Positions 5,528-41,884 of a DNA stretch of 64,000 nt are shown in pieces. The stretch spans positions 3,518-67,517 of the forward strand of contig JBHIAE010000004.1 of the NCBI GenBank assembly GCA_046758445.1, given 5' to 3'. This stretch comes from Candidatus Thorarchaeota archaeon (GTDB lineage: Archaea > Asgardarchaeota > Thorarchaeia > Thorarchaeales > Thorarchaeaceae). The notes under the pieces were generated by a model that was not told the DNA's origin, ran no database searches, and saw nothing but the letters and a program-made list of their open reading frames with translations. The position numbers and the translations under genes were made by a program. Position 1 is the stretch's first letter. Each line of letters opens with the position of its first letter.

Positions 5528-6739
5528 CTATACAAACATTTCAAGTAGCGCATCCACGCGTGTCCGAATCTGGGCCTCGTTGAAGAGTCGACTGTCCACC
5601 ATATCGCCTTCGATGACGACACCAGGCACTCCAGTTCTCTCAGTGACTATCTCTTTGGACACAAGCTGGCCTAAGGAGTATCGCTTGCAGGAGCGCACAG
5701 AGAACATCATGAATCCGTCTAGGTCATACTCCTTGATCAGTTCGCTCATTTTGTCGACCTTTGCTTCAAGGCCCTTATTCAGGTAGACATTAGAATAGAT
5801 CTCGACTGCTCCATCAAGGTACGAATCCGTGTCCGCCCCCTGGATTGCGCCAGACCATGCATGTGTGTAAGTGTCCGCAGGAAATACGACTCCTCGCTCC
5901 GCTAGCCTGTTGAAGAACCGAAGAATGAACCATGGGGGAATGTTGTCCCATAGGAGACGCACCTTCTCTTCACGAATCGCACCGATGCCCTGTTTCACAC
6001 GGTCTTCGACCTCGGCAAGCAGTGCCTCGTAGAACTCAGTGCATTGCTTTAGACCACGACTTGAAACCACGGGTGCCATAGTCAGAAATCGATCTGCGCA
6101 GTTCAGTGGACTTGGTTTGTTCCGACAGGCCTTCAGAGACCCGATCCAGAGGTTTGTAGCCTTGCTTGATAGATCGGCCACCTCCCGAAACTTGTCGTCC
6201 TCAAGTGTTGTGTTGAATGTCTTCCCCAGGAACTCCACCAGACGATCAACGCCTTTACGAACGTAGGCTCTATGATGCGGCTGCTGTTCCTCATCTAGAG
6301 GAGGTGTGTCAAGAAGGAAGACAGGGGCTCCAGTCATCTCTGAGATTGCGTCATACCATTTGAGAACTGTTCCGCAGATGTTGTTACAGGCCAAGAGTGC
6401 TTGGGGAGTGGGGAGTGTCCCCATAGGAACTTCATCGGGTCTGTCGGTTGACCCAATGCTTGCTCGAGCATAAGAGCAGAGCTCCTGAGAGTATCCGAGG
6501 TCCTCAGCATACCCGCATACGTCCGGTCCTATCTTCTGTGCACCAATGATAGCTCCCGCTTGTTCAGGATATGTAGGAAAGACTCCCATTGCAAGCGGAA
6601 TCTCAACGGGGAAGCCTGAGGTCACCCAGGCTAGCTTGCCATCCTCACTCGCCGCTGCTGCCTCAAGTCCATGGCGGAATGCAATCTGCTGCAGCAATGC
6701 TTGGGTTTCCAATCGCCGGTACGGCTTATCTGCTGACAT
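5528..6739 (-). CDS. 2-hydroxyacyl-CoA dehydratase family subunit (HgdB/BcrB-like)
   Basis: Shows family-level similarity (WVTSGFPVEIPLAMGVFPTYPE). The start is set at the ATG at 6739, which is preceded by an AGGAG ribosome-binding site just after the upstream gene's stop. The longer ORF to 6808 would overlap the upstream gene. Confidence 0.7.
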   Translation of the reverse strand: MSADKPYRRLETQALLQQIAFRHGLEAAAASEDGKLAWVTSGFPVEIPLAMGVFPTYPEQAGAIIGAQKIGPDVCGYAEDLGYSQELCSYARASIGSTDRPDEVPMGTLPTPQALLACNNICGTVLKWYDAISEMTGAPVFLLDTPPLDEEQQPHHRAYVRKGVDRLVEFLGKTFNTTLEDDKFREVADLSSKATNLWIGSLKACRNKPSPLNCADRFLTMAPVVSSRGLKQCTEFYEALLAEVEDRVKQGIGAIREEKVRLLWDNIPPWFILRFFNRLAERGVVFPADTYTHAWSGAIQGADTDSYLDGAVEIYSNVYLNKGLEAKVDKMSELIKEYDLDGFMMFSVRSCKRYSLGQLVSKEIVTERTGVPGVVIEGDMVDSRLFNEAQIRTRVDALLEMFV

Positions 6740-6752
6740 TACTCTTACTCCT

Positions 6753-8102
6753 TCATTTGCTCTCGAGCGTTTCAATAAATGTCTGTATGCGACCCTCAAG
6801 TCTAGCACGATCTGACAATTCTGGGTCGATAGGTAGCTTCACAGTTGCGACACCCACTTCCTTAGCTGCTCTTTCAAGTGAGGGGGCCTCAAACTCATCT
6901 GGATCGCAGAATGACTGCTCACATATGATCAGTCCATGAATCGATAGCTTGGTCAAGATTGCCCTTAGAAAGGCTGTGCGTTCTGGAAGACCTTCCTGCG
7001 TTGGCTCACCCGGAGCTCCAAGTATTGAACGTGCCGCATTGTCAAACGGGTCGCCCCGCGTACTGACTGGTGGTGCGAAGACTGTCTTGAAGCCAAATGA
7101 GAGCAAGTCAAGTACAAGCGCCGAATCGGTGAATCCCTGAACACCGTTGACAAGTCCGGCAATTGTGCTTGGCTCAATCATTCCTCCGATGACAGCGATT
7201 CTTGGGCGAGTGTCCTCGAATTGTACCGTTAGACCTTCAAGATTCTGGCTGAGAAGTGCGTTCTTGAGCTTCTCTGGAGCACCCGAAAGTCCCTCCTCAA
7301 TGCTCGCAGATGCGGCGGCCAGTTCCCTTTCAATCCTATCTAACCCAGTATTGGTCGGGGAGGTCAAGAGATCGCCAACGAGCTCATACAGAGTATCACG
7401 AGAAACAAGGCTGGGTTGGATGAGTCTTGTTGCATAGAGTAATTGAAGACCATCTCTGATTCTCCGAATCAGAGTGGCTGCATCTTTGAAGGCGTCCTCG
7501 GAGAACGTGGTGCCATAGTTGGCTGAAAGCGTCCTGGATAGAGTCCTAATCTCTTCCGCAAGGAACTGAACAGCGGACTCCTTTGGCTTTCCTGCAGGGT
7601 ACGTAAGCCGAAACACACTATCCCCAGGAAACCGTAATCGCCAGACATCTCCAACATTCTGCAGAGCATCACAGGTATTCCCCGGGAATACAATCCCTGC
7701 CAGCTGAGGTAGACTATCATTGACCCTCTGGCTGAAGAGGTTTCGAGTGAGCGCGCAAGAGAATGTCTGAAGACTTGCCTCGTATGCACCAACGATTGAT
7801 GGACTCGTACGGACAAGTGAGGGCGTCAGTCCATGTGCCAACACAATCTCCAGAGGGAAGTGAGGATATATGTAGCCGAGGACTCGCTCTCCAGCGTCTA
7901 CAAGCTCTCTGAGCACCTGATTGGATTGTTCAATTACCTGTGGATAGCTCAAGCAGACACCCCTCAACTCTCTTTGTTGAGGACGAACGAATAGTATCGA
8001 ATCTCTCTCGTTCGCTTTCTTATTTGTTGTGCTGGAAGCACGCATAGCATGAGTATGGTGAAAGTGGGCATCTTGAAGCCAAGTTGAGCAAGAATCGAGC
8101 AA
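6753..8102 (-). CDS. 2-hydroxyacyl-CoA dehydratase family subunit (HgdA/BcrC-like)
   Basis: Contains YIYPHFPLEIVLAHGLTP, typical of the HgdA/BadD family. It is the first gene of the minus-strand hgdA-hgdB-hgdC order. The start could instead be an internal Met. Confidence 0.7.
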   Translation of the reverse strand: MLDSCSTWLQDAHFHHTHAMRASSTTNKKANERDSILFVRPQQRELRGVCLSYPQVIEQSNQVLRELVDAGERVLGYIYPHFPLEIVLAHGLTPSLVRTSPSIVGAYEASLQTFSCALTRNLFSQRVNDSLPQLAGIVFPGNTCDALQNVGDVWRLRFPGDSVFRLTYPAGKPKESAVQFLAEEIRTLSRTLSANYGTTFSEDAFKDAATLIRRIRDGLQLLYATRLIQPSLVSRDTLYELVGDLLTSPTNTGLDRIERELAAASASIEEGLSGAPEKLKNALLSQNLEGLTVQFEDTRPRIAVIGGMIEPSTIAGLVNGVQGFTDSALVLDLLSFGFKTVFAPPVSTRGDPFDNAARSILGAPGEPTQEGLPERTAFLRAILTKLSIHGLIICEQSFCDPDEFEAPSLERAAKEVGVATVKLPIDPELSDRARLEGRIQTFIETLESK

Positions 8103-8215
8103 ACAGAAGGAATATCAAGCAGTGTTGCCGTAAAAAGACGTCTATGCCAACTGCACGGCTTCTGGCCTAGTGCGGTGGATGAACGAATGAAGAGAGTAAT
8201 GGAGAGGAAATATCC

Positions 8216-32626: not shown

Positions 32627-34036
32627 ATGAATGGTGTGAGCACAACAATGAAGATGCCGGGATGGGAAGTCATCGGCGCACTCCTTGTCGCGGTGATGAC
32701 CATCTGTGCACTCGTTTTGACTGCGGTCTTCAGCGAACTCAAAATCCCTGTCCTCATTGTGTTCGTAGGAACATACGTTCTAATCAGTACTGAGAAGGTG
32801 AACAGGACCGCCATGTCACTCTTGGGCTTGGCCATTGTTGGCGTGGTTCTATGGGTTGGCCTTGAGATGGGGCTCGGGGGAGGCGAGGATTTTGAACACC
32901 TGATTGTGGGTATCGATTGGACAACCATCATCTTTGTCATCGCCATGAGCGTCATCGTGTCGGTTTCTGCGGCCTCTGGCCTGTTCCAGTACATTGCACT
33001 CAGGATTGCTGCACCCAGTGCGGGGGACCACAAGGCTCTGTTCACAACCTTCTTGGTTATTGTGGCCAGCATTAGTCTCTTCTTTGATACAGTTTCAACG
33101 ATGCTAATAGCGGCTCCGTTCACAATCGAAATATGCAAGGCCCTCGAGATTGACTTCAAGCCCTTTCTGGTGTCTGAGGCAATAGTGTGCAACTTCTCCT
33201 CGATACCCTCAATCGTTGGCGCAGTGCCAAATCTCGTCATCGCAGGTGTGACTGACCTCGATGTCGGATTCCTGTTTGTTGCATTCATGCCGTTATCCAT
33301 CATTCTGTTCTTGGTCAGCCTTCCGATACTGCACCGTTGGTACGGAAGCAAATTCGGCACATCAGACGAGCATCGGGTAGATGCGATTTTCTCAATCGAC
33401 CCTGAAACAATGATAAAGGACCGCTGGGACTTCAAAGTATCAATAGTTGCCATTGTGTTTCTTGTAATTGGCTTTGCACTTGGCCCGACCTTTGGACTCG
33501 TGCCCCCGATGACTGCGTTGATCGTTGCTTCCATCATGCTCCTGATAGCGCATGAGAGAGCAAATGAGTTCTTGAACCGGATAGGATGGCCAACTGTCTT
33601 CTTCCTAGTGGGCCTCTTTGGTCTAGTTGTAGCCTTGGAAGTCACTGGCCTGATTAATGATCTAGCGCTTCTCGTGGGCGAGATCATAGGCGACAATTCG
33701 GCCTTTGCAACAGTCTTCCTTGTCTGGATACCTGCTATCCTCTCGGCCTTCTTGGACAACCTGCCAGTATCAGCCGTGCTAGCACCGATTGCTCAGCAGT
33801 ACGCCGCTGTCAGCCCTGTACTTCCACTGGCGTTGGTGTTCGCAGTGAACATTGGCGGCTATATCTTCACACCTTTGGGGTCTCCAGCCAATATGGTTGT
33901 AATAGGACTGTCTGAGATTGAACATGATCCGATACCATTCATAGATTTCATCAAGATTGGCACATTACTGGGCATGATTCATCTCATCATTGGTAGCGGA
34001 TATCTCCTGTTAATACTGGCTCTGCTAGGGGGCTGA
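32627..34036 (+). CDS. ArsB/NhaD-superfamily permease (Na+/anion or citrate transporter-like)
   Basis: A polytopic protein with a characteristic internal repeat. The complementary-strand ORF at 32608..33759 is low-complexity and judged spurious. The start may be at MKMPGWEV (32648). Confidence 0.7.
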   Translation: MNGVSTTMKMPGWEVIGALLVAVMTICALVLTAVFSELKIPVLIVFVGTYVLISTEKVNRTAMSLLGLAIVGVVLWVGLEMGLGGGEDFEHLIVGIDWTTIIFVIAMSVIVSVSAASGLFQYIALRIAAPSAGDHKALFTTFLVIVASISLFFDTVSTMLIAAPFTIEICKALEIDFKPFLVSEAIVCNFSSIPSIVGAVPNLVIAGVTDLDVGFLFVAFMPLSIILFLVSLPILHRWYGSKFGTSDEHRVDAIFSIDPETMIKDRWDFKVSIVAIVFLVIGFALGPTFGLVPPMTALIVASIMLLIAHERANEFLNRIGWPTVFFLVGLFGLVVALEVTGLINDLALLVGEIIGDNSAFATVFLVWIPAILSAFLDNLPVSAVLAPIAQQYAAVSPVLPLALVFAVNIGGYIFTPLGSPANMVVIGLSEIEHDPIPFIDFIKIGTLLGMIHLIIGSGYLLLILALLGG

Positions 34037-34216: not shown

Positions 34217-35431
34217 GTGAACAGAACCGCTACTGAATTGTTGGGAATGGGAGTAGTCGGGATAATCCTCTGGACACCCGGGACAATAGAGCCTTTCTCT
34301 CAAATCGTGCACGAGATTGAATGGGCGACCATTCTATTTGTGACGGCCATGTTCATTGTCGTCACTATCGCTGCGTCCTCGGGAATGTTTCAGTATCTCG
34401 CAATTGAACTCACTAGGCCCACGCATGGCGAAACGAAGCGCCTATTCGTCGCTCTGCTCGGTTTTGTGTTTATCATCTCCTTGTTCTTTGACACCACCTC
34501 TACGATGCTGATAATGGCACCACTTACGATTGAGCTCTGCAAGGCTCTTGAGATTGATTTCAGACCGTTCCTAATCTCAGAGGCGATTACCAGTAATTTC
34601 GCATCGATTCCTTCAGTTGTCGGTGCAGTGTCCAACCTCATTGTGGCAGACGAGGCATCTGTGGATCCTGCCTTCCTCTTCGAGATTCTAATGCCGCTCT
34701 CTGTCATTCTCTTCGTAGTTTCTGTACCACTTCTGCTCAAGTTCTTCGAGAATCAGCTTGAACCCTCTGAGGAGTATCTTGTTTCACAGACGATGCGCAT
34801 TAGTTCGAAGTATATGATTCGCTCTCGGTCTGACTTCTATCTATCCATTGTCGCGATGTTCACGCTTGTGATAGGTTTCACTCTCGGGCCCGCATACGGA
34901 CTCGAGCCTGCTGTGATTGCAATCACTGTGGCGGCTGCATTTCTGATAGTTTCACGCGAATGGGTAGACGAGATCTTGAAGCGGGTGAACTGGGGCACGA
35001 TATTCTTTCTGGTCGGCCTCTTCGGGCTGATTGCAGCTCTCGAGCTCACTGGGGTGATCGAAATGCTGGGAGCAGGCATACAGGCGTTCATCCAAGGGAA
35101 CGATGTCTTGGGGATAGTTTTCATGACGTGGGTGCCTGCATTGCTCTCAGCAGTCATCGACAATATCCCCATCTCCGCAGTCCTGTCACCTATTGCGGTA
35201 CAGTTCGCTACTCTGAGCCCCCTTCTGCCAGTGGCCTTGATCTTCGCAGTTAACGTTGGTGGCTTCATACTGCCAATTGGATCACCGGCGAACATTCTTG
35301 CATTGGCTCTCTCTGAGAAAGAGCGCAGGCCAATCAGAATGCGGGAATTTGCGAAGATAGGAGCTCCACTTGGGCTCCTGATGCTTGGTATTGGAACTGG
35401 GTGGTTACTCTTGGCAGGAATGTTAGTCTAG
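34217..35431 (+). CDS. ArsB/NhaD-superfamily permease, tandem paralog with its N-terminal helix displaced into another frame
   Basis: Collinear with the upstream paralog from KVNRTA onward. The segment ALVDVVAAVVLIVFGGTYIAISSRK, homologous to the paralog's PVLIVFVGTYVLISTEK, is encoded at 34143..34217 in the +2 frame and ends in a TGA overlapping the GTG at 34217. Confidence 0.55.
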   Translation: MNRTATELLGMGVVGIILWTPGTIEPFSQIVHEIEWATILFVTAMFIVVTIAASSGMFQYLAIELTRPTHGETKRLFVALLGFVFIISLFFDTTSTMLIMAPLTIELCKALEIDFRPFLISEAITSNFASIPSVVGAVSNLIVADEASVDPAFLFEILMPLSVILFVVSVPLLLKFFENQLEPSEEYLVSQTMRISSKYMIRSRSDFYLSIVAMFTLVIGFTLGPAYGLEPAVIAITVAAAFLIVSREWVDEILKRVNWGTIFFLVGLFGLIAALELTGVIEMLGAGIQAFIQGNDVLGIVFMTWVPALLSAVIDNIPISAVLSPIAVQFATLSPLLPVALIFAVNVGGFILPIGSPANILALALSEKERRPIRMREFAKIGAPLGLLMLGIGTGWLLLAGMLV

Positions 35432-35566
35432 AAAGAGGGTGGTGCCCGCCCCCGTCTTGTGCCGCCGGGAGGACAGAACTCAACGGAGACAGGACACCGA
35501 ACAGCTAGTTGTAACTGAATGCTAATTAGGTGTTTGGTAGGGACAGCCACACAAAGAAACAGGGGT

Positions 35567-36070
35567 ATGAGATTGCCAAAGCGTGCTCGTTGTCCACACT
35601 GCGACAGGTTGTTCAATCGTTCTGCATTGGATAATCATGTCATAAAGTGTAGAGCACGACGTAGGGTTGATGGTTCACATCGAGAGATTTCGAGAAGCTC
35701 CACTGTGATAGTTGATGGGAACAACGTAGCCTATCATTTGGCACCTAATGGAAATCCCAGGGTGGCAAACTTGATTCTCGCAAGCCGGAGTCTGACTAGA
35801 GCGGGATATAGACCCATCATAGTAGTTTCAGCTGCCTTGATTCATTCGGTTGACGACCCAGAAGCTCTACAGCAGATGATAGACAACAGAAAGGTCGTTC
35901 AGGCCGCTAGGGGCACCAATGACGACTTGACCATAATTCGCATGGCCCAGCGCAACAATGCTGATGTGGTCAGCAATGACAGATTCCTCGACTGGCGTGA
36001 CAGACATCCATGGCTGGCATCTAGGCTCAAAAGGTACAGAATGACACCATCAGGTATCATCTTGGTCTGA
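35567..36070 (+). CDS. Zc3h12a/N4BP1-type NYN ribonuclease with an N-terminal C2HC zinc finger
   Basis: The zinc finger CPHCDRLFNRSALDNHVIKC is followed by an NYN domain containing VIVDGNNVA, GTNDDLTII and DVVSNDRFLDWRD. These match the catalytic Asp positions of the Zc3h12a-like RNase family. The ATG at 35567 is preferred over the upstream start. Confidence 0.65.
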   Translation: MRLPKRARCPHCDRLFNRSALDNHVIKCRARRRVDGSHREISRSSTVIVDGNNVAYHLAPNGNPRVANLILASRSLTRAGYRPIIVVSAALIHSVDDPEALQQMIDNRKVVQAARGTNDDLTIIRMAQRNNADVVSNDRFLDWRDRHPWLASRLKRYRMTPSGIILV

Positions 36071-36149
36071 GTTCCTGTGTTTCAGCAAAAGCGTTAAAAT
36101 GATACAGGCAAAGCCCTCGTGAAACACTCCTGCTGAGAGGTGAAAGAGT

Positions 36150-37937
36150 ATGCGTATTGACGAGCTTCGGAAGACATACTTGCGGTTCTTCAAGGAAAAG
36201 GATCACGCAATATTAGGCTCGTCATCGCTTCTTCCGGAAACTGATCCGACTGTTTTGTTCACCATGGCAGGAATGCATCCGCTTGTACCTTTTCTACTCG
36301 GCCAACCGCATCCTCAAGGAACTCGACTCGCAAACTGTCAGAAATGCATTCGGACCACTGATATCGATGAGGTTGGTGACACTACCCACCTCACGTTCTT
36401 GGAGATGCTTGGAAACTGGAGTCTTGGAGACTATTGGAAGGAAGAGGCAATAACCTGGAGCTATGAGTTCCTGACCTCCAAGGAGTGGCTTGGATTCGAT
36501 CCAGAGAAACTGTCTGTCACAGTATTTGAAGGGGATAGAGACGCTCCACGAGATGATGAAGCGGCTAAAGTATGGAAGAGTGTTGGTGTACCAGCGGAGC
36601 GCATCTACTATCTGCCAAAGAAGGATAATTGGTGGGGACCCCCGGGAGAAGTGGGCCCTTGTGGACCCAGCACAGAGATGTTCATTGAAGTAGATGAGAT
36701 ACCAAAGTGCGGTCCAGATTGCCAACCCGGCTGCAACTGTGGGCACTTTGTGGAGATTTGGAATGACGTCTTCATGGAGTACAACAGGACGAAGGACGGC
36801 ACATACGAGAAACTAGACCGAAAGAACGTTGACACAGGAATGGGCATGGAACGGACTGCAGCCATGCTCCAAGGAGTAGGCAGTGTCTACGAAACAGAAG
36901 GATTCCAGCCCCTCGTTGAGTGTGTAAAGCGGCTATCAGGGAAAGACGAGTTTGACGAGGAAGAGGTAAGACTTGTCCGGATAATCACGGATCACGTGAA
37001 GGCTTCCGTGATGATAATGGCTGATGACGCACAGATTGCTCCCTCAAATGTCGAACATGGGTACATAGTACGAAGACTCCTGAGAAAGGCCATCCTGAGC
37101 GCAGACAAGATGGGTATTGGGAAGGGTTTCATGAATGACTTGGCAGACATCGTGATTGACATCTACAGGGACGTCTACGATGAGGTGACAAGGAATCGCG
37201 ACTTCATTCATGAGAACCTTGAAGCAGAGGAAACCAAGTTCAGGAAGACTCTCAAGAAGGCTCTAGGCAAGTTCGACAGGATTCTGAAGGAAACGGGTTC
37301 CATAACAGGCACTGATGCCTTTTTGCTCTTCACGAGCTTTGGCCTCCCTCTAGAGATGACAAGGGATCTCGCCGAAGAGAATGGCATTGAGATAGATATG
37401 GAAGAGTTTCGGCGTCAATTCGAACATCATCGAGAGATCTCAAGAACTGCCACAGAAGGGAAGTTCAAGGGCGGCCTTGCTGACCACAGCGAAGAGATTA
37501 CAATGCTTCATACTGCGACTCATCTTCTACAGGCGGCACTCAGAATAGTCCTTGGGGATTCGGTTCGTCAGAATGGAAGCAACATTACTAGGGAGCGACT
37601 GCGCTTCGACTTCACCTTCCCGAGGAAACTCACTCCTGAAGAAGTTCAACAAGTGGAAGACTTGGTGAATGAAGTCATCGAGCAGGATCTGGAGGTTGAA
37701 CACAGGTTCATGCCCTACGATGAAGCGATTGAACAGGGAGCTCTGGCATTCTTCAGAGAAACATACGGGGATGAGGTTTCTGTGTACAAAGTAGGCGACT
37801 TCAGCATGGAACTGTGCGGAGGCCCTCATGTAGTACGGACTGGGGTACTGGGCCGCTTCAAGATCACAAAGCAGAAGAGCATCGGGTCAGGACTGATGCG
37901 AATCCGTGCTGTGATTAGTCCCGAAGGGTCACCATAG
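36150..37937 (+). CDS. alaS: alanyl-tRNA synthetase, short bacterial-type (catalytic + tRNA-recognition + editing domains; no C-Ala domain)
   Basis: Contains the class II AlaRS motifs [41 protein letters not shown] and [8 protein letters not shown].FIE. The editing domain has HTATHLL and MELCGGPHV. The ORF ends at 595 aa. Confidence 0.8.
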   Translation: [595 protein letters not shown]

Positions 37938-40660: not shown

Positions 40661-41884
40661 CTAGGATTGGTCATAGCCTAGCTTTGGAACTCGCGCAAGC
40701 CAGTTCAGGAAGTAACCTATGATAACTGAGATCACGAGGCCGCCTGATGCAAGGAGAAGCGTGTCAAAGAGCGTTGGAGTAGCCCCACTCAGAATCTGCA
40801 TCCAGCTCCAGTAGAATCCTGCCAGAGTCATTCCTGAGAAAGCCACCTTCTTCAGCGGCACCTTGACGCGCTTGGTCTGGAAGACGTCCATATCTGTCAG
40901 TGCGGCGGCCAGTGCGCCACCTTTGTCAGGCTTGAGTTTGAGGCGCTTCGAGAAGACGCCAACTGTCACCTTGCTCTTTGGCTTGACCACTTTCAATGCT
41001 TTTGGAGCGTAATCCGCAATGTCATCCGAGAAGTATCGCACAGCGCTTGGTACATCAATGCCACACTTCTGACACTCCACTGCGTTCTTCTTCCACTTCT
41101 TTCCACACTGTGGACACCTCTTGTGATCCCATGCGCTCCCAGCAGCCTCACTGACACGTTTCACGACCTCCTCTTTGCCTACCTTTTCAGCTTGTTTCTT
41201 TGGACTTCTCCTTAGCACGACCGCTGGTGGGAAGATCCCCACGTCTGAGGCGCTCTTTGCTCCTCGAAGCTTGCGTGCAGCAAATATCCCCCCTTGGAAA
41301 TCATCAAGTGCCATAATGAGGGAGAAGACAGCCATTATCGTGAACGTTAGTGTAAGGAGCCCGTTCAGTGAGAGTATTGCTCCGAAGCCCGTGGCTCCAA
41401 GTTGCATAATGAAATCCTGATTGAGTGCGGTATAGTTGCCTGGGTCCGCATCAAGCGTGTAGTTGAGCCCGAAGGATCCAAGCAACGTGCCTGACAAGAG
41501 ATCAATTCCGCCATAGGTTAGTGAGGCCAGGGGGACTGACGCATTCATTAGACTCGCTGTGTATCCTGACGGCACAGATGCACCTATTGAGAACGGTTGG
41601 TTGATGATTGGGACTCCGAGGTAGGTCATCATGAGGATTCCCGAGTGAAGTGTCATGTTCGCAGCCACATCTATTGTGATCTCAATGGTCATGCCTTCTG
41701 TCAGGTTTACTGGAATCTGGTTCGTTTCACTCGAGTCTGCAGCAGAAATACCATTCACTTCAAGTAGAAAGGACAGATTCCCATCATCCGTCCATGTCTG
41801 TGCCTGCACCGGTAACATCAGTGGCGCACACAGAGTGTACGCTAGAAACAGCAAGAGCGCAATCTGTGGTAGCGTCTTCTTCAT
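40661..41884 (-). CDS. membrane protein with a signal peptide, an extracytoplasmic domain, and a cytoplasmic segment carrying a zinc ribbon
   Basis: The signal peptide MKKTLPQIALLLFLAYTLCAPL precedes a TM (LLTLTFTIMAVFSLIMAL), then CPQCGKKWKKNAVECQKCG, and a C-terminal TM. Confidence 0.55.
   Translation of the reverse strand: MKKTLPQIALLLFLAYTLCAPLMLPVQAQTWTDDGNLSFLLEVNGISAADSSETNQIPVNLTEGMTIEITIDVAANMTLHSGILMMTYLGVPIINQPFSIGASVPSGYTASLMNASVPLASLTYGGIDLLSGTLLGSFGLNYTLDADPGNYTALNQDFIMQLGATGFGAILSLNGLLTLTFTIMAVFSLIMALDDFQGGIFAARKLRGAKSASDVGIFPPAVVLRRSPKKQAEKVGKEEVVKRVSEAAGSAWDHKRCPQCGKKWKKNAVECQKCGIDVPSAVRYFSDDIADYAPKALKVVKPKSKVTVGVFSKRLKLKPDKGGALAAALTDMDVFQTKRVKVPLKKVAFSGMTLAGFYWSWMQILSGATPTLFDTLLLASGGLVISVIIGYFLNWLARVPKLGYDQS

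Follow-up and report, generated by a model that had tools for sequence, protein, structure and literature searches.

What does a small protein that joins a zinc finger to an NYN nuclease domain do in an Asgard archaeon, and which RNA might it act on? The question is raised by an open reading frame (ORF) in a 64,000-nucleotide (nt) stretch of DNA from Candidatus Thorarchaeota archaeon (GenBank assembly GCA_046758445.1, contig JBHIAE010000004.1, positions 3,518 to 67,517 of the forward strand). This whole stretch is referred to as the window, and all coordinates are positions within it. The ORF at 35567..36070 on the plus strand, stop codon included, encodes a predicted zinc finger-NYN (ZnF-NYN) ribonuclease (RNase) of 167 amino acids (aa), as delimited from the ORF list, Pfam, homologues and an alignment designated A1. 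With moderate confidence, the protein is taken to be a minimal two-domain housekeeping Mg2+-dependent endoribonuclease, with a small hairpin RNA, for which a candidate gene lies upstream on the opposite strand, as its likeliest specific partner.

Domain identity, active site and predicted fold

A homologue search covering 5.8 billion proteins returned 281 homologues. A length of ~165 aa is common to the Thorarchaeota members of this set, and the best 120 of the 281 are nearly all 163-197 aa long and 55-86% identical to the query; the named sources among these 120 are Thorarchaeota metagenome-assembled genomes and a few 'Promethearchaeota' or Hodarchaeota. Some of the Thorarchaeota relatives are already labelled 'NYN domain-containing protein' by NCBI. 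Alignment A1 comprises 26 sequences that are 55-86% identical to the query protein. An alternative upstream ATG at 35519 would lengthen the ORF. The start at 35567 was preferred because the 26 aligned homologues begin at the equivalent position, with MPKRARCP, and the extra codons cross a conserved A/T-rich promoter-like box.

The initial annotation had read the protein as a Zc3h12a/N4BP1-type NYN ribonuclease fused to a C2HC finger. The Pfam scan bore out the Zc3h12a domain: residues 45-157 match RNase_Zc3h12a (PF11977) with a score of 57.4 bits (E 1.9e-15; cut-off 23), and the same family was matched by all 26 homologues. The only other match was a weak one to zf-C2HC_2 (PF13913), at 20.6 bits and below its cut-off of 27; there was no match to zf-CCCH. 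This finger family was matched at E<=0.01 by 23 of the 26 homologues, the best at 6.3e-6, and PF13913 is precomputed for several homologues; by sequence, the finger may be considered a borderline member. A scan against NCBIfam gave no relevant match. The reading of the domains in the initial annotation is thus correct. The protein falls outside the N4BP1/KHNYN subfamily itself, as neither upstream KH domains nor a downstream CUE-like (ubiquitin/NEDD8-binding) domain is present in the 167 aa.

The basic beta-beta-alpha C2HC finger occupies residues 7-29 (35585..35653, plus strand). Its ligands (C9-x2-C12-x11-H24-x3-C28, that is, C-x2-C-x11-H-x3-C) are invariant in the 26 sequences of alignment A1, as are the basic residues K5, R6, R8 and R18. 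The Zc3h12a-like NYN/PIN-like nuclease domain follows at residues 45-167 (35699..36067, plus strand) and is defined by Pfam, alignment A1, the structural model and Foldseek. All of the motifs quoted in the initial annotation, IVDGNNVA, NDD and VVSNDRFLD together with the finger, are present. The key residues D50, N53, D119, D120, S136 and D138 are invariant, as are G51, S88 and N137; the C-terminal beta-hairpin RYRMTPSGLIL is conserved, and position 142 varies (D/E/S/T/N).

In a profile alignment, D50, D119, D120 and D138 coincide with the ZC3H12C motifs DGSN, DD and SND-x3-D, and the motif spacings match D141/N144, D225/D226 and D244/D248 of MCPIP1. In MCPIP1, D226 contacts Mg2+ directly while D141, D225 and D244 do so via water; all four are essential, whereas N144 and D248 are dispensable for activity (PMC3413151). 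Since the four invariant aspartates align to the essential ones, the Asp tetrad is judged from the alignments to be intact, and the sole variable position equals a dispensable MCPIP1 residue. The correspondence to the Mg2+-coordinating residues of MCPIP1 that had been proposed for this protein is thereby supported.

An AlphaFold2 model was built on the 26 homologues and had a mean predicted local distance difference test score of 85.7. In the model, the finger consists of strands 6-8 and 15-17 and a helix at 18-34, and is followed by a disordered linker of ~10 residues (35-43) and an alpha/beta nuclease domain. When the model was compared with the Protein Data Bank (PDB) using Foldseek, the top matches were ZC3H12C, ZC3H12B and Regnase-1/MCPIP1, in agreement with the likeness to MCPIP1 that had been expected; the KHNYN and PRORP folds also matched, with E below 1e-4. 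The predicted fold is thus of the Regnase PIN-like type. By score, catalytic residues and fold, the protein is a member of Pfam RNase_Zc3h12a.

Within that family, the differences from the well-studied members are considerable. Identity to the Regnase/MCPIP proteins (ZC3H12A-D; PDB 3V33, 7NDJ) is ~20%, and the eukaryotic insertions, the UBA-like N-terminal domain and the C-terminal regulatory region are all absent from the 167 aa. The finger is an N-terminal C2HC beta-beta-alpha finger, whereas theirs is a C-terminal CCCH finger that directly follows the nuclease domain; here only 10 residues follow the domain. PRORP (protein-only RNase P) differs in having a PPR RNA-binding domain and a central split zinc domain, and the Pfam PRORP model was not matched. 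Nob1, the rRNA D-site endonuclease of archaea and eukaryotes, is similar as a concept, being a small archaeal PIN-like nuclease with a zinc module for RNA maturation, but it belongs to the PIN_6 family and carries a C-terminal zinc ribbon. The protein had no Pfam match to PIN_6 or NOB1_Zn_bind, and Nob1 was not among the top structural matches.

To define the distribution of the gene, one genome per GTDB species was scanned, giving 60 NYN loci, nearly all labelled Thorarchaeota and each with one NYN copy; the isolates MP5_2600 and TM1S.7 gave two loci each. In a library clustered at 50% identity the Thorarchaeota family is a single representative (245 bits). The wider superfamily comprises 1724 proteins at E<=1e-3, the best 150 of which score 74-204 bits with the Thorarchaeota profile. 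For human ZC3H12A-C and KHNYN, the same profile gives only 26-31 bits. The protein was therefore placed in the compact prokaryotic branch (a ~120-aa NYN domain, 74-245 bits), and a eukaryotic signature in the sense of special closeness to Regnase is not borne out by the profile scores. Matelska et al. (2017) counted 154 bacterial and 23 archaeal members of the prokaryotic RNase_Zc3h12a branch, with function unknown (PMC5499597). A literature search on Asgard and archaeal Zc3h12a-like NYN proteins yielded only this PIN classification, and no description of the finger and NYN architecture.

More distant relatives (~170 aa) are built in the same way except that their finger is of the C2H2 type; those with names are Kariarchaeaceae and Hodarchaeota. 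In this analysis, a single N-terminal C2HC or C2H2 finger followed by NYN (~165-175 aa) occurs only in Asgard groups (Thorarchaeota, Hodarchaeota and Kariarchaeaceae by name), whereas other relatives combine the nuclease with a transmembrane region, a PQQ propeller, a STAND NTPase or ChaB. The nearest relatives of this NYN domain, from other metagenomes (P0124, P0130, P0150, P0223/P0363, P0133), vary in architecture and include a tandem NYN-NYN protein (303 aa), a membrane-anchored form in Heimdallarchaeota (669 aa), a STAND-like NTPase joined to NYN (P0150, an Asgard fusion of ~900 aa, possibly for defence), a PQQ beta-propeller joined to NYN in Promethearchaeota, and ChaB joined to NYN. From this variety, Zc3h12a-like nucleases would seem to have expanded in Asgard archaea. 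The possibility of a finger-less NYN paralogue was also considered, but the database proteins of 121-148 aa are short calls of the same gene from an internal codon; P0352, for example, is such a short call at 6130-6492 of locus L056.

A candidate hairpin RNA gene upstream of the nuclease gene

The second element of the locus was first seen as a stretch of ~60 nt upstream of NYN that is near-invariant even though the NYN proteins are just 61-68% identical. Compared with the window copy, this element averages a nucleotide identity of 0.73, and the adjoining NYN coding sequence 0.62. The element, at 35438..35499 on the minus strand and thus divergent from NYN, corresponds to an extended hairpin of 61-62 nt; its delimitation is based on conservation, folding and covariation. 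The RNA is GC-rich with paired 5' and 3' ends and an apical CUCCC loop, the loop region reading GUCCUCCCGG.

When nine copies were folded as the minus strand, eight shared the extended hairpin, with energies of -28 to -37 kcal/mol and z scores of -2.5 to -4.8; the ninth had a z score of -1.3. The plus strands of the same nine copies gave z scores of only +0.4 to -2.1. The stem is imperfect and ~25-28 base pairs (bp) long, with a flush 5' end and a 3' overhang of 2-3 nt. It contains a 7-bp helix that joins both ends (P1), a second 7-bp helix (P2) and a 5-bp helix (P4) that closes the invariant CUCCC loop. Pairing in P1, P2 and P4 was maintained in 95.3% of 702 cells, compared with 40-66% in slid controls. 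Additionally, compensatory double changes were found in five pairs, a result equalled by 0 of 500 shuffles. When the minus strand is read, U-G pairs make up about 25% of the paired cells; were the plus strand the RNA, these would be A.C mismatches.

Putative expression signals are arranged in the same sense. A palindromic, A/T-rich TATA-like box, CTAATTAG, is found at 35522..35529 and may serve as a promoter element; on the minus strand it precedes the RNA 5' end by 23 nt, and on the plus strand it precedes the NYN ATG by 38 nt. In other loci a conserved A/T-rich box, which reads CUAUUUAAU in most clades, comes ~22-24 nt before the RNA 5' end, and other clades have a TTTATAC-type box ~45 nt ahead of the NYN start. 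The promoter-like motifs of NYN and the RNA stand back to back (~70-130 nt). A U-rich tract, CUCUUUCU, directly past the RNA 3' end (35430..35437, minus strand) is a putative archaeal terminator, and U-rich tracts follow the RNA 3' end in nearly all loci. A plus-strand RNA, either a CitMHS2 3' untranslated region or an NYN leader, was ruled out by the folding z scores, the U-G pairs and the orientation of the box and the U-tract.

The possibility was considered that the hairpin belongs to a known class of RNA. Rfam gave no match over the window at the gathering score, nor over 35380-35620 at E<=10, and neither ARAGORN nor Rfam supported a tRNA, a split tRNA or an Rfam family. Inspection of alignment A5 spoke against an H/ACA or C/D small RNA (sRNA), as the 3' tail is ACC, GCC, UCC or ACU rather than ACA and C and D boxes are missing; the hairpin likewise lacks a conserved tandem G.A motif and a K-turn signature.

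The occurrence of the RNA was determined with an nhmmer profile, and then with a covariance model, over the 60 genome loci. The RNA was found in 48 of the 60, with one match per locus, always on the strand opposite NYN and always at a distance of 130-240 nt before the NYN start. The pairing of RNA and NYN holds whether the next gene upstream encodes CitMHS2, a metallophosphatase or an FAD-oxidase. Furthermore, a metagenome scan with a 25-position pattern taken from the element returned 24 contigs, all representing the same locus, and NYN adjoined the RNA in all 21 that had enough flank. Given its conservation, minus-strand fold, covariation and linkage, 35438-35499 on the minus strand is regarded as a candidate gene of an undescribed Thorarchaeota small RNA closely linked to ZnF-NYN.

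The 12 RNA-negative loci comprise four that end too near NYN to be tested, one (L021) in which the permease abuts the NYN start, and seven with adequate upstream sequence. Locus L049, with only 347 nt upstream, gave no match. At the seven loci with adequate upstream sequence the element could have been lost, diverged or relocated.

Proposed function of the nuclease and its relation to the RNA

In the proposed mechanism, the strongly basic C2HC finger would be tethered by the disordered linker to the Zc3h12a-like (PRORP-group) NYN domain, in which a Mg2+/water cluster held by D50, D119, D120 and D138 would cleave RNA in the manner of MCPIP1/Regnase. Affinity for RNA, or selectivity, most likely comes from the finger, since the Zc3h12a and PRORP nucleases gain their specificity from appended RNA-binding modules (PMC5499597). 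Because the gene is vertically inherited, single-copy and provided with its own promoter-like motif, the enzyme would serve constitutive RNA processing or turnover in the cell rather than act as a toxin or in defence. As a specific partner, whether substrate, regulator or cofactor, the hairpin RNA is the likeliest candidate, because enzymes of the Zc3h12a family, MCPIP1 among them, favor stem-loops and cut microRNA (miRNA) precursors (PMC5499597) and because the two genes stand back to back throughout the class.

Several observations weigh against this interpretation. Seven loci (L009, L014, L016, L027, L047, L056 and L059) keep an intact ZnF-NYN gene with no covariance-model match; the RNA is therefore not obligatory. 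The distant Heimdall-group loci with a C2H2-finger NYN had neither an adjoining RNA by the covariance model nor alaS, and the upstream spacers of these distant genes contain no GC-rich hairpin. Synteny, which is what suggests a functional link between the RNA and NYN, is high across the whole region in the class, so that adjacency is a weak sign of functional coupling. The finger, moreover, could bind protein or DNA rather than RNA. Finally, the literature search yielded no biochemical or expression data on any archaeal member.

A stronger form of the partnership would be a dedicated RNase-RNA module in which the hairpin is a specific substrate, cut for example in its loop to give small RNAs as MCPIP1 cuts the loops of pre-miRNAs, or else an inhibitor or guide, and in which the gene pair is one functional unit and not a general RNase with a chance neighbor. 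This is possible but rather unlikely. The restriction of the RNA to a position beside NYN (48 genome loci and all 21 testable metagenome matches), the persistence of the pair whichever of CitMHS2, metallophosphatase and FAD-oxidase comes next upstream, the back-to-back promoters and the ~25-28-bp hairpin with its 2-3-nt 3' overhang are all consistent with such a module, as is the preference of Zc3h12a enzymes for stem-loops and their cleavage of miRNA precursors (PMC5499597). Nevertheless, this support is synteny, some clades keep NYN without a detectable RNA, and the RNA is absent at the ZnF-NYN loci outside Thorarchaeota. Furthermore, the C-rich CUCCC loop fits equally well a trans-acting sRNA, independent of NYN, that pairs with G-rich ribosome-binding sites. 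A class-wide Thorarchaeota RNase-RNA system, in which the loop or stem would be cleaved into small RNAs or the hairpin would act as a stoichiometric regulator or guide, is a shade more doubtful still.

Analogies to two known arrangements may be drawn. A hairpin of pre-miRNA size with a short 3' overhang beside a Zc3h12a-type nuclease gene would resemble the cleavage of pre-miRNAs by MCPIP1 (PMC5499597).

The pairs of Y RNA and Ro60 (rsr) offer the other: there, an end-paired small RNA with a long stem is encoded beside the gene of a protein of RNA metabolism. An end-paired small RNA adjoining a nuclease gene is similar in plan, but there is no sequence or family relationship and no Rfam match. 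None of Ro60, Dicer and Argonaute was seen among the genes flanking NYN in the window.

Gene neighborhood and less probable functions

The gene order around NYN is FAD-linked oxidase, metallophosphatase, two tandem CitMHS/ArsB-type permeases, NYN and alaS, followed by genes for a PhoU-like protein, a PiT phosphate transporter and a metallo-beta-lactamase-fold protein. This order, which amounts to a housekeeping context, is conserved over the 60 loci. The two permease paralogues (32627-34036 and 34217-35431, plus strand) are ~50% identical to each other, and two, one or none of them is found upstream of NYN in related loci. A 407-aa ORF at 40661-41884 on the minus strand, with no Pfam or NCBIfam match, is syntenic across the Thorarchaeota loci with 41-92% identity.

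The alaS gene (36150..37937, plus strand) encodes a short alanine-tRNA ligase of 595 aa, recognized by Pfam tRNA-synt_2c and tRNA_SAD, by synteny and by a full-length match to NCBIfam NF002436 (851 bits); its N-terminus gives the impression of a bacterial type. The direct junction of NYN and alaS is the most stable link of the neighborhood, present in ~52 of 55 loci and surviving rearrangement on either side (L044, L047). It is broken only in L026, where a 1.66-kb insert (6504-8161) splits the two genes, in L032, where a relocated CitMHS2 gene (6504-7979) lies between them, and in L059, which has no alaS within 6 kb downstream of NYN.

The possibility was therefore considered that NYN is coupled to alanyl-tRNA synthetase or tRNA metabolism, either by processing tRNA(Ala) or its precursors or by regulating the alaS mRNA, in analogy to the PRORP-type NYN enzymes with RNase P activity. 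Several results make this improbable. A motif resembling a B recognition element (BRE) and TATA box (CAGCAAAAGCGTTAAAAT) lies at 36083..36100 on the plus strand, 13 nt past the NYN stop, and a [CG]AAAGCGTTAAAAT motif together with a GGTGA Shine-Dalgarno sequence is found in nearly all of the 55 NYN-alaS intergenic regions. These spacers are 76-100 nt long (79 nt here), and the distance from TATA to ATG is 46-55 nt in nearly all loci. As read from this conservation, alaS has its own promoter-like motif class-wide; an NYN-alaS operon is thus unnecessary to explain the adjacency, and it is unlikely given this motif and the Shine-Dalgarno sequence in the spacer and the loss of adjacency at the distant ZnF-NYN loci, where the genes sit among unrelated neighbors. 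A palindrome or operator past the alaS TATA box, visible in some clades, was not significant (mean stem 4 bp; 18% of loci beat shuffles at p<0.1). The junction is broken in the three loci named above, the window contains no tRNA gene by ARAGORN, and the protein has no PPR or other domain that would measure a tRNA.

A role in toxin-antitoxin systems or anti-phage defence, which the initial annotation had also raised, fares worst. PADLOC-DB 2.0 gave 0 families at E<=1 for the protein. Near the NYN gene there was no antitoxin-sized ORF, no Rfam match and no GC anomaly, and the spacers that flank it, 135 nt upstream and 79 nt downstream, contain the RNA and the promoter-like motifs and no conserved small ORF. 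The VapC-type PIN toxins share the PIN-like Rossmannoid core with acidic residues, but no antitoxin gene adjoins NYN and PIN (PF01850-type) is not its closest match by sequence or structure. PIN-like nucleases are frequent as toxins, the STAND-type fusion in P0150 has an architecture typical of defence, and a small RNA beside an endoribonuclease, possibly an RNA antitoxin, superficially resembles a type III toxin-antitoxin system, yet the lack of a PADLOC match, the lack of an antitoxin ORF and the synteny fixed over the 60 loci favor a vertically inherited cellular gene and leave the toxin or defence reading very improbable. The nuclease may be a post-transcriptional regulator, as the initial annotation suggested.

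Taken alone, the protein adds little, as it is an uncharacterized member of a known and labelled nuclease family. It is a new compact architectural variant of that family, while the RNA is a genuinely new element. One Asgard class conserves, as a single-copy gene, a compact RNase with a single finger and a Zc3h12a-type NYN domain, and C2H2 versions exist in the Heimdall group; nucleases of the Regnase/N4BP1/KHNYN type may find a simple prokaryotic model in this protein. Beside the nuclease gene there is nearly always a gene for a conserved small RNA that is structured and unclassified, and to our knowledge conserved small RNAs outside the classical types are hardly known in Asgard archaea. If the pair does not function together, the gain would still be a candidate for a new RNA family and a housekeeping RNase with the right annotation. 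If it does, it would constitute a new archaeal RNA-processing or regulatory module, and a class-wide RNase-RNA system would represent an archaeal ribonucleoprotein or small-RNA pathway not described before, resting on the nuclease family that serves eukaryotes for stem-loop-directed mRNA decay and the destruction of pre-miRNAs.
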